Under the pieces are notes generated by a model that had not been told where the DNA came from, did not search any database, and worked only from the letters and a program-made list of their open reading frames with translations. From the NCBI RefSeq assembly GCF_056746865.1, contig NZ_JBWKMP010000007.1: 12,766 bases of DNA; one strand, 5' to 3'. This document shows, piece by piece, positions 1-12,766 of the stretch. This DNA is from a plasmid. The first letter of the stretch is position 1, and every line of letters starts with the position of its first letter. The translations under genes and the position numbers were made by a program.

Positions 1-260
1 GAGGTATCCGGTAAGCGGCAGGGTCGGAACAGGAGAGCGCACGAGGGAGCTTCCGGGGGGAAACGCCTGGTATCTTTAAGTCCTGTCGGGTTTCGCCACC
101 TCTGACTTGAGCGTCGATTTTTGTGATGCTCGTCAGGGGGGCGGAGCCTATGGAAAAAGCGCCTCCTGCGCGGCCTTTTCTGGGGTCTTCGTTTTTTGCT
201 CACATGTTCTTTCCGGCGTTATCCCCTGATTGTGTGGATAACAGTATCACCGCTTTTGAG
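1..260 (+). other. ColE1-type replication origin, distal part (3' region of the RNA II primer and RNA/DNA switch)
   Basis: Recognised by eye as the pMB1/ColE1 origin segment (ggtatccggtaagcggcagggtcggaacaggagagcgcacgagggagcttcc ... ttttgctcacatgttctttcc). Continues the RNA II region that starts at 12371 if the molecule is circular. RNA/DNA switch estimated near 160-200 by distance (about 555 nt) from the RNA II start. Confidence 0.85.
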
Positions 261-399
261 TGAGCAGACACCGCTCGCCACAGCCGAACGACCGAGCGCA
301 GCGAGTCAGTGAGCGAGGAAGCGGAAGAGCATCGGCATCTGCATGTTCTCCTTACGCATCTGTGCGGCATTTCACACCGTACATGGTGCACTTTTCATA

Positions 400-520
400 C
401 AATCCGCACCGATGCCGCATGACTAAGCCAGTATACACTCCGCTATCGCTACGTGACTGGGTCAGGGCTGCGCCCCGACACCCGCTAAAACCTGCTGACG
501 CGCCCTGACGGGCTTGTCGG
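400..520 (-). promoter_or_regulatory. oriT: bom / oriT (basis of mobility) with candidate nic motif CTGG/CTTA on the minus strand near 424-431
   Basis: Sequence tatacactccgctatcgctacgtgactgggtca...gccccgacacccgc matches the pBR322/ColE1 bom region from memory. The reverse complement of 424-431 (taagccag) is CTGGCTTA, the nic motif I recall for ColE1-type oriT. Lies between ori and rom, as in ColE1. Confidence 0.55.
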
Positions 521-573
521 CTCCCGGCATCCGCTCACAGACAAGCTGTGACCGTCTCCGGGAGCTGCATGTG

Positions 574-765
574 TCAGAGGTTTTCACCGTCATCCCCGAA
601 ACGTGCGAGGCAGCTGCGGTAAAGCTCATCGGCGTGGTCGTGAAGCGATTCACAGATATCTGCCTGTTCATCCGCGTCCAGTTCGTTGAGTTTCTCCAGC
701 AGCGTTAATGTCTGGCCTCTGATGAAGCGGGCCATGTTAAGGGCGGTTTTTTCCTGTTTAGTCAC
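574..765 (-). CDS. rom: Rom/Rop, RNA I-RNA II interaction modulator (63 aa)
   Basis: Translation VTKQEKTALNMARFIRGQTLTLLEKLNELDADEQADICESLHDHADELYRSCLARFGDDGENL is near-identical to Rop as I recall it. GTG start at 765 with GGAGG 7 nt upstream on the minus strand. Confidence 0.9.
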   Translation of the reverse strand: MTKQEKTALNMARFIRGQTLTLLEKLNELDADEQADICESLHDHADELYRSCLARFGDDGENL

Positions 766-796
766 TGATGCCTCCGTGTAAGGGGGATTTCTGTTC

Positions 797-1153
797 ATGG
801 GGGTAATGATACCGATGAAACGCGAGAGGATGCTCACGATACGGGTTACTGATGATGAACATGCCCGGTTACTGGAACGCTGTGAGGGTAAACAACTGGC
901 GGTATGGATGCGGCGGGTCTGCCTGGGGGAGCCGGTTGCCCGTTCCGGGAAGCTGCCGACACTGGCACCGCCGTTACTGCGTCAGCTGGCCGCCATCGGG
1001 AATAACCTGAATCAGACCGCGAGGAAGGTGAACAGCGGGCAGTGGTCTTCCGGTGATCGGGTTCAGGTGGTGGCCGCACTGATGGCCATCGGGGATGAGC
1101 TGCGCCGGCTGCGTCTGGCCGTCAGGGAACAGGGGGCGCGGGATGATAGTTAA
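797..1153 (+). CDS. mbeC: Mobilisation accessory protein MbeC (MobC-like relaxosome component)
   Basis: 118-aa ORF immediately upstream of and overlapping the relaxase gene, in the ColE1 mbeC position. Start codon uncertain (ATG at 797, 806 or 815); purine-rich stretch aagggggga upstream. Confidence 0.75.
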   Translation: MGVMIPMKRERMLTIRVTDDEHARLLERCEGKQLAVWMRRVCLGEPVARSGKLPTLAPPLLRQLAAIGNNLNQTARKVNSGQWSSGDRVQVVAALMAIGDELRRLRLAVREQGARDDS

Positions 1154-10978: not shown

Positions 10979-11040
10979 ATGAGGAAAAGATTTTTTGTGG
11001 GAATATTAGCTATAAACCTCCTTGTTGGATGTCAGGCTAA
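10979..11040 (+). pseudogene. kil: Colicin lysis (release) lipoprotein gene, 5' part (MRKRFFVGILAINLLVGCQA...), interrupted by IS5 after codon 20
   Basis: RBS taagga; signal peptide with lipobox LVGC as in ColE1 Kil. Reading frame enters the IS5 end at 11041. Confidence 0.8.
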
Positions 11041-12235
11041 GGAAGGTGCGAACAAGTCCCTGATATGAGATCATGTTTGTCATCTGGAGCCATGGAACAG
11101 GGTTCATCATGAGTCATCAACTTACCTTCGCCGACAGTGAATTCAGCAGTAAGCGCCGTCAGACCAGAAAAGAGATTTTCTTGTCCCGCATGGAGCAGAT
11201 TCTGCCATGGCAAAACATGGTGGAAGTCATCGAGCCGTTTTACCCCAAGGCTGGTAATGGCCGGCGACCTTATCCGCTGGAAACCATGCTACGCATTCAC
11301 TGCATGCAGCATTGGTACAACCTGAGCGATGGCGCGATGGAAGATGCTCTGTACGAAATCGCCTCCATGCGTCTGTTTGCCCGGTTATCCCTGGATAGCG
11401 CCTTGCCTGACCGCACCACCATCATGAATTTCCGCCACCTGCTGGAGCAGCATCAACTGGCCCGCCAATTGTTCAAGACCATCAATCGCTGGCTGGCCGA
11501 AGCAGGCGTCATGATGACTCAAGGCACCTTGGTCGATGCCACCATCATTGAGGCACCCAGCTCGACCAAGAACAAAGAGCAGCAACGCGATCCGGAGATG
11601 CATCAGACCAAGAAAGGCAATCAATGGCACTTTGGCATGAAGGCCCACATTGGTGTCGATGCCAAGAGTGGCCTGACCCACAGCCTAGTCACCACCGCGG
11701 CCAACGAGCATGACCTCAATCAGCTGGGTAATCTGCTGCATGGAGAGGAGCAATTTGTCTCAGCCGATGCCGGCTACCAAGGGGCGCCACAGCGCGAGGA
11801 GCTGGCCGAGGTGGATGTGGACTGGCTGATCGCCGAGCGCCCCGGCAAGGTAAGAACCTTGAAACAGCATCCACGCAAGAACAAAACGGCCATCAACATC
11901 GAATACATGAAAGCCAGCATCCGGGCCAAGGTGGAGCACCCATTTCGCATCATCAAGCGACAGTTCGGCTTCGTGAAAGCCAGATACAAGGGGTTGCTGA
12001 AAAACGATAACCAACTGGCGATGTTATTCACGCTGGCCAACCTGTTTCGGGCGGACCAAATGATACGTCAGTGGGAGAGATCTCACTAAAAACTGGGGAT
12101 AACGCCTTAAATGGCGAAGAAACGGTCTAAATAGGCTGATTCAAGGCATTTACGGGAGAAAAAATCGGCTCAAACATGAAGAAATGAAATGACTGAGTCA
12201 GCCGAGAAGAATTTCCCCGCTTATTCGCACCTTCC
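11041..12235 (+). mobile_element. IS5 (1195 bp), complete, with 4-bp target site duplication CTAA (11037-11040 and 12236-12239)
   Basis: Ends ggaaggtgcgaacaag... and ...cttattcgcaccttcc are the IS5 inverted repeats from memory. CTAA is the typical IS5 target and is duplicated on both sides. Confidence 0.95.
11109..12089 (+). CDS. insH: IS5 transposase (326 aa)
   Basis: [96 protein letters not shown]... matches the IS5 transposase from memory. Confidence 0.95.
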
Positions 12236-12315
12236 CTAACTATATACGTGATGTTCAGGGAGGGACTGTGGCTCCATCATCTTCTTCTAAACTGACGGGG
12301 ATCTCTGTTCAGTAG
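12236..12315 (+). pseudogene. kil: Colicin lysis lipoprotein gene, 3' part (...[25 protein letters not shown])
   Basis: Continues the kil frame across the CTAA duplication; stop at 12313-12315. Confidence 0.8.
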
Positions 12316-12334
12316 AAAAGATCAAAGGATCTTC

Positions 12335-12363
12335 TTGAGATCCTTTTTTTCTGCGCGTAATCT
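12335..12363 (+). promoter_or_regulatory. RNA II (primer) promoter: -35 TTGAGA, 17-bp spacer, -10 TAATCT
   Basis: Positionally and sequence-wise equivalent to the ColE1/pMB1 RNA II promoter (ttgagatcctttttttctgcgcgtaatctgctgc). Confidence 0.7.
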
Positions 12364-12370
12364 GCTGCCT

Positions 12371-12766
12371 GTAAACGAAAAAACCGCCTGGGGAGGCGGT
12401 TTGATCGAAGGTTAAGTCAGTTGGGGAACTGCTTAACCGAGGTAACTGGCTTCAGCAGAGCGCAGATACCAAATACTGTCCTTCCAGTGTAGCCGTAGTC
12501 GGGCCACTACTTCAAGAACTCTGTTGCACCATTTGCGCCATCATCGCTCTGCTAACCAAGTTACCAACGGCTGCTGCCAGTGGCGCTTTGTCGTGTCTTA
12601 CCGGGTTGGACTCAAGACGATAGTTACCGGATAAGGCGCAGCGGTCGGGCTGAACGGGGGGTTCGTGCACACAGCCCAGCTTGGAGCGAACGACCTACAC
12701 CGAACTGAGATACCAACAGCGTGAGCTATGAGAAAGCGCCACGCTTCCCGAAGGGAGAAAGGCGGA
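12371..12766 (+). ncRNA. RNAII: RNA II replication primer precursor, 5' portion (continues into 1-about 160 if circular)
   Basis: Homology by eye to the ColE1 RNA II 5' region, with stem-loops such as ccgcctggggaggcgg (12384-12399). Downstream sequence is near-identical to pMB1 (ggtaactggcttcagcagagcgcagataccaaatactgtcctt...). Confidence 0.75.
12372..12479 (-). ncRNA. RNAI: RNA I antisense copy-number control RNA (about 108 nt)
   Basis: Complement of the first roughly 108 nt of RNA II. The minus strand begins acagtatttggtatctgcgctctgctgaagccagttacc as in pMB1 RNA I, and ends in a stem-loop plus U-tract (complement of aaaaaaccgcctggggaggcgg). Confidence 0.7.

Follow-up and report, generated by a model that had tools for sequence, protein, structure and literature searches.

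The 12,766-nt plasmid contig NZ_JBWKMP010000007.1 very probably represents one complete turn of a circular ColE1-family colicin plasmid, linearised inside its replication origin

The closest described relatives of the DNA analysed here, the 12,766-nt plasmid contig NZ_JBWKMP010000007.1 of the RefSeq assembly GCF_056746865.1 (this whole stretch is called the window below), are Escherichia coli colicin plasmids of 8,899-8,910 bp, namely NZ_CP128975.1, AP026459.1, NZ_CP032881.1, NZ_CP135675.1 and pSMS35_8 (NC_010485.1). Their backbone has the same order as that of the window and is 98.7-99.7% identical to it; the shared content includes the origin, rop, mbeCABD, an AT-rich segment with a fragment of an IS3-family insertion sequence (IS), cer, exc2, exc1 and the colicin, immunity and lysis genes. 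The window differs from these plasmids in carrying an IS21-family element, an IS5, a 21-bp duplication in mbeA/mbeD, an inserted G (3718) and, at position 167, a T. ColE1 (NC_001371.1, 6,646 bp) possesses the same replicon architecture, with 92% identity along 1.4 kb of the origin/rop region, no difference in the hexamers of the RNA II promoter and the same cer core. Its mob, exc, colicin, immunity and lysis genes have homologues in the window (88-94% nucleotide identity), whereas it has no counterpart of the 2.3-kb region 2721-5039 of the window. The origin of the pMB1/pBR322-type vectors is taken here to belong to the same replicon family (the junction sequence given for it in an initial annotation of the window is presumably one base off the window itself); unlike such vectors, the window is a naturally occurring colicin plasmid that has mob, exc and cer functions. 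Within the ColE1 family, the window falls into an already known lineage, that of the 8.9-kb colicin plasmids of E. coli, and the host of the plasmid is most likely E. coli.

Comparison with these relatives indicates that the window covers, with high probability, the full circle of a mobilisable ColE1-family colicin plasmid of 12,766 bp, linearised inside the origin. Read directly from the window, the last bases are ...cgcttcccgaagggagaaaggcgga and the first bases are gaggtatccggtaagcggcagg...; when the last 400 and the first 400 bases are joined, they align to positions 6890-7689 of NZ_CP128975.1 in a single uninterrupted stretch, with 799 identities in 800 positions and no gaps, and the sole mismatch (T at window position 167 vs G in NZ_CP128975.1) lies away from the joint. 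The alignment of the wrapped origin (12236-12766 followed by 1-900) to positions 506-1937 of ColE1 is also gap-free at the joint, with an identity of 92%, and the only difference from ColE1 at the joint itself is the G at window position 1, where ColE1 has a C. An assembly scar was considered as the source of this G and rejected, as the same G is found in the 8.9-kb relatives and in the Yersinia pestis plasmid pPCP1 (NC_003132.1). A 200-nt query centred on the joint matched 2,546 PLSDB records contiguously along 80% or more of its length, 132 of them with at least 99% identity. Plasmid pPCP1 is identical at 200 of the 200 positions of this query; the cargo of pPCP1 differs from that of the window, and the comparison covers the origin segment alone. 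Judging by these alignments, chance cannot yield such junction matches. No terminal direct overlap of the window ends was found for lengths of 5-399 bases.

The same conclusion is suggested by the arithmetic of the whole sequence. The best database match is NZ_CP128975.1 (pMTY1886_untypable_2), a complete circular E. coli plasmid of 8,899 bp, used here as the reference. Its segments 7290-8899, 1-5824, 5818-6762 and 6759-7289 correspond to window positions 1-1610, 1611-7456, 10096-11040 and 12236-12766, respectively; these four collinear blocks are 99.6-100% identical, and each base of the 8,899-bp circle is covered once, apart from block overlaps of 7 bp and 4 bp, which are the target-site duplications (TSDs) CTTTTAT and CTAA of two insertion sequences. 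Beyond these insertions, the window differs from the relative only by a 21-bp tandem duplication (2563-2583), a single inserted G (3718) and two substituted bases (167 and 1949). The length of the window is the exact sum of the relative, the IS21-family element with its TSD, IS5 with its TSD, the tandem duplication and the single base (8899+2639+7+1195+4+21+1 = 12766). The initial annotation had described the window as a complete circular plasmid, the ends of which are contiguous in a ColE1-type origin with at most one substitution at the joint, and had proposed aligning the joined ends to a ColE1 origin. The seamless joint, the once-only coverage of the circle of the relative and the exact length sum speak for the complete circle; the contiguity of the ends is borne out by the gap-free alignments to NZ_CP128975.1, ColE1 and pPCP1, the second of which is the proposed alignment. 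The substitution is real (G vs C in ColE1), and it is not a joining artefact, because close relatives share the G.

From these comparisons, we infer both the physical circularity and the monomeric state of the plasmid. The origin, RNA I, rop and cer are each present in the window in a single copy, and a self-comparison of the window found no internal repeats, so a monomer fits the data. It is quite improbable that the assembler collapsed a dimer, a higher multimer or a cointegrate into one unit, in which case the true replicon would exceed 12,766 bp and the ends would still join. Such forms do occur among the ColE1 records in the collections, e.g., the 16,543-bp plasmid p1405d and a 22,976-bp plasmid with three matching places, and a perfect head-to-tail multimer is indistinguishable from a monomer to an assembler working without long reads; on the other hand, the window carries an intact cer core, a site that normally holds ColE1 plasmids in the monomeric state, each of its modules is single-copy, and its relatives have been deposited as 8.9-kb monomers. 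Plasmid p1405d (NZ_JBUBJL010000005.1) is itself a head-to-tail dimer-like molecule with two copies of the backbone, which carries an ISSso4-type IS21 element in mbeA, one copy being truncated. This plasmid indicates that elements of this IS family have inserted into ColE1 backbones on independent occasions and that multimers do reach the databases.

Several results weigh against the window being a faithful complete ColE1-family plasmid. In whole-window searches, no PLSDB record and no complete RefSeq E. coli record covered more than 70% of its length, and exact 43-nt scans of genome and metagenome collections for the junction between the IS21-family element and the colicin gene gave 0 matches; these searches therefore yielded no independent second assembly of the exact plasmid. 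A generic sigma-70 scan also missed the RNA II promoter, since the -10 hexamer fits just three of the six consensus positions, and the assignment of this promoter therefore rests on homology. Exact look-ups of the products of two open reading frames (ORFs) spanning the junctions of the IS21-family element gave 0 matches as well. The nearest second assembly is the 3,655-bp draft contig DBBFPB010000138.1, which covers window positions 424-4078 and stops short of the joint. That the window is a piece of a larger replicon or a chimeric contig, with ends adjacent by accident and one or both IS elements mis-joined, is extremely unlikely: E. coli genomes contain several copies of IS5 and of the IS21-family element, assemblies typically go wrong at such repeats and the exact plasmid has no twin in the searched databases, but both elements are flanked by exact TSDs of the expected length (CTAA, 4 bp, for IS5 and 7 bp for the IS21-family element), the backbone resumes exactly at the point of interruption on both sides of each IS, the length arithmetic closes to the base and the window ends are adjacent bases of the origin. 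The reading as one complete turn of the circle is thus preferred to both alternatives; the combination of the two IS insertions is without a match in the searched collections, and neither the replicon nor its closure into a circle is novel.

The functional parts of the origin can be placed by comparison with ColE1 (Table 1). In ColE1, RNA II starts 555 bp and RNA I 445 bp upstream of the origin (PMC11012335). Counted along the ColE1 record from the respective starts, the distances for RNA II (+555) and RNA I (+445) both reach the A-run GGAAAAAC at about 1193-1197, and in the alignment of the window to ColE1, with indels counted, both distances lead to window position ~157, within the A-run 154-158. 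The RNA/DNA switch would lie in this A-run, and the linear record would begin 157 bases upstream of the switch, inside the RNA II primer region. The T at window position 167, where otherwise identical relatives have a G, is located about 10 nt downstream of the predicted switch. For the persistent RNA-DNA hybrid, ColE1 is known to require two G-runs, about 265 nt and about 20 nt upstream of the origin. The window has both, at 12656-12661 and 136-141, the former before the end and the latter after the start of the record, and the origin is therefore readable on the circle only. Of the proposals of the initial annotation on this region, the RNA II start at 12371 agrees with the ColE1 homology (G12371 corresponds to ColE1 G641), and the advice to read the origin coordinates on a circle is confirmed by the elements found on both sides of the joint; its placement of the switch near 160-200 after wrapping was right as to the wrapped location near the start of the record, whereas the range itself is better given as 154-158, at or just outside its low edge.

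The copy-number control of the replicon is also of the ColE1 type. The Rfam model RF00106 of RNA I matches 12375-12477 (-) over its full length (model positions 1-102) with a score of 87.4 bits (gathering score 47, E 1.8e-15), and the RNA I sequence ends in an intrinsic terminator composed of a hairpin (12402-12381) and a T-run. A permissive Rfam scan of the whole window (E up to 1) found no RNA family beyond RNA I. Rop/Rom, which ColE1 and pMB1 have but some other ColE1-type members lack, is encoded in the window. No plasmid-encoded replication initiator was found among the ORFs of at least 100 aa, all of which are mob, exc, colicin, immunity or transposase genes; the sole Rep-like match is that of exc1 to rep_pAB02_ORF2, with 38 bits, below the cut-off of 85. 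A 52-aa ORF (12512-12670, -), antisense within RNA II and with no Pfam match, has RefSeq orthologues that are called 'replication initiation protein' in ColE1 and p1405d but 'hypothetical protein' in some of the relatives; for a Rep-independent replicon, the initiator label is probably an artefact of annotation. The window thus shows an RNA II promoter about 555 bp upstream of the origin, RNA I, Rop and no initiator protein, as a ColE1-type theta replicon does, and, judged by its sequence, the replicon is a member of the ColE1 family, possessing all testable sequence-level defining features.

Replication should proceed as in ColE1, with the RNase H/Pol I mechanism and the exact position of the switch assigned by homology. 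RNA II would be transcribed from G12371, cross the joint between the end and the start of the record and form a persistent hybrid near the origin; RNase H would then cut it in the A-run 154-158, priming DNA polymerase I. RNA I (about 12372-12479, -) together with Rop (574-765, -) would set the copy number, and the single cer (5159-5188) would resolve multimers. Within the part shared by RNA I and RNA II, the stem-loops (window ~12385-12440) differ strongly in sequence from those of ColE1; the sequence on either side is almost the same, and the RNA I structure of the Rfam model has been preserved. Given the established knowledge of ColE1 incompatibility, this divergence suggests that the incompatibility specificity of the plasmid probably differs from that of ColE1/pMB1.

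Table 1. Features of the 12,766-nt window, in the coordinates of the linear record
Feature	Position	Strand	Details
RNA II preprimer, 3' part after wrapping	1-158	+	G-run 136-141 (~-20); predicted RNase H / RNA-DNA switch 154-158
bom/oriT-homologous region	420-520 (approx.)	.	Nearly identical to ColE1 1461-1580
rop/rom (RNA I-RNA II binding modulator)	574-765	-	Pfam PF01815 Rop, 126.6 bits, E 3e-37; orthologue in relatives annotated Rop family protein
mbeC, MobC-family relaxosome accessory protein	830-1153	+	Pfam MobC PF05713, NikA-like PF21983; orthologue annotated in relatives
mbeA relaxase	1143-2717	+	NCBIfam NF047848 relax_MbeA_E1, 864 bits (cut-off 500)
mbeB	1831-2349	+	Pfam MbeB_N, 75 bits; overlaps mbeA in another frame
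mbeD	2356-2610	+	NCBIfam NF033829, 117.9 bits; 84-aa product; carries the 21-bp tandem duplication
AT-rich segment	2860-4490	.	GC 31-44%; no ORF >82 aa; in 8.9-kb relatives, absent from ColE1
IS3-family fragment (IS629/IS1203-like orfA 5' part)	4491-4727	-	94-98% identical to annotated IS3-family transposase genes of many plasmids
cer core (XerC arm, spacer, XerD arm)	5159-5188	+	Single copy; 30/30 pattern match
exc2 entry-exclusion lipoprotein	5193-5612	-	NCBIfam NF033828, 175 bits
exc1	5696-6133	-	Positional orthologue of ColE1 4443-4880, annotated entry exclusion protein 1
Colicin E1-type pore-forming colicin pseudogene, 5' part	6393-7456	+	A5-to-A4 frameshift ~7246
IS21-family element (ISSso4-like)	7457-10095	+	2,639 bp; istA 7689-9224, istB 9241-9996; TG...CA ends
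Colicin pseudogene, 3' part (pore-forming domain)	10103-10593	+	Pfam PF01024, 95.9 bits; 10-bp deletion ~10473
Colicin E1-family immunity gene	10590-10931	-	Intact; Pfam PF03526, 120 bits; region 100% identical to NZ_CP128975.1
Colicin release (lysis) gene, 5' part	10979-11040	+	Maps to NZ_CP128975.1 lysis gene 6701-6838
IS5	11041-12235	+	1,195 bp; transposase gene 11073-12089; inverted repeats GGAAGGTGCGAA
Lysis gene, 3' remnant	12236-12315	+	Stop TAG 12313-12315; aligns to ColE1 506-585, end of the ColE1 lysis coding sequence
RNA II promoter	12335-12363	+	-35 TTGAGA 12335-12340, 17-nt spacer, -10 TAATCT 12358-12363; identical to ColE1
RNA II preprimer, 5' part	12371-12766	+	+1 G12371 = ColE1 G641; G-run 12656-12661 (~-265 from switch)
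RNA I antisense copy-number regulator	12372-12479 (approx.)	-	Rfam RF00106; 5' end 12479 by ColE1 homology

Both insertion sequences are typical of their families. The IS21-family element has adjacent istA and istB genes (NCBIfam transpos_IS21 NF033546, 285.8 bits, and IS21_help_AAA NF038214, 257.8 bits), characteristic ends and a short TSD of 7 bp (CTTTTAT, 7450-7456 and 10096-10102), in agreement with an ISSso4-like member of the family. Each of the eight best-scoring E. coli records listed contains a 100% identical 2,639-bp copy annotated as ISSso4 family, and these copies are located in different replicons with different neighbouring gene annotations; at least 80% of the element is covered by 300 records. 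IS5 has the expected length of ~1,195 bp, terminal inverted repeats, a 4-bp YTAR duplication (CTAA, 11037-11040 and 12236-12239) and a DDE transposase of the IS5 group (NCBIfam NF033581, 365 bits), and it is 99.5-99.8% identical to annotated copies of IS5. On the known 8,899-bp backbone, the IS21-family element would have entered a colicin gene that was already defective, and IS5 the lysis gene.

The colicin gene, rebuilt by removal of the IS and compared with the intact 521-aa gene of NZ_CP135675.1, contains three lesions: the frameshift at ~7246, the insertion of the IS21-family element at 7457-10095 and the 10-bp deletion at ~10473. The frameshift and the 10-bp deletion are also present in the 8,899-bp relatives, so the IS21-family insertion is later than these small lesions. 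The sequence at ~6315-6348 upstream of the colicin gene, which we take from ColE1 to contain the SOS boxes, is conserved and intact. The lysis gene is cut by IS5 after codon 20, and its translation enters IS5 and then meets a stop. The frames of colicin and lysis protein needed for a functional colicin E1-type operon (cea-imm-lys) are both broken, and the immunity gene alone is intact; by sequence, the plasmid seems to have kept immunity but lost the ability to make colicin.

IS5 ends 136 bp upstream of the RNA II start, its junction with the backbone being at -135.5 from G12371. The 3' end of the element, with the 177-bp bend/IHF 'IB' region (window from 12059), faces the RNA II promoter, and the transposase promoter is distal. 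IS5 is known to activate the glpFK, flhDC, fucAO and lac promoters from -99.5 to -178.5 in the same orientation (PMC2753651). By analogy, the IS5 insertion might both remove the lethal lysis gene and alter the strength of the RNA II promoter, and hence the copy number, an idea that we consider unlikely; if true, it would represent a new phenomenon, the tuning of a plasmid origin by an insertion sequence.

The mobilisation, cer and exclusion modules correspond to those of ColE1. The region at 420-520 is presumably the oriT, a role that we assume from ColE1 and pBR322. The tandem duplication of 21 bp (GAGCAGACAGAACACTTGAGC, 2563-2583) preserves the reading frames of the overlapping genes mbeA and mbeD and lengthens each product by 7 aa in comparison with NZ_CP128975.1; the 84-aa MbeD variant is also encoded on the independent draft contig DBBFPB010000138.1, which is 99.8% identical to the window over 424-4078. 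The cer core was located with a pattern of XerC arm, spacer and XerD arm. This pattern gave 0 matches in 200 shuffles and also matches ColE1 at 3909-3938. The exc1 product showed no match to a Pfam family.

The region of the window absent from ColE1 includes the AT-rich segment, for which the permissive Rfam scan found no match. A counterpart with ~80% identity occurs amid IS debris in the 140-kb plasmid NZ_CP029742.1 (extracted locus 5001-7291), where a 108-aa hypothetical protein is annotated. The IS3-family fragment is a relic of an older insertion, common to the 8.9-kb relatives; RefSeq lists a partial transposase pseudogene at this site in NZ_CP128975.1.

The main consequence of the closure concerns annotation. 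The origin, the RNA II gene and its -265/-20 elements straddle the ends of the record, and tools that read it linearly would split or miss the replicon; the window is best handled as a closed circle of 12,766 bp. As regards the biology of the lineage, the plasmid offers a snapshot of decay, in which the colicin and lysis genes have been destroyed by several independent lesions and the immunity, mobilisation, exclusion and replication functions have been kept.

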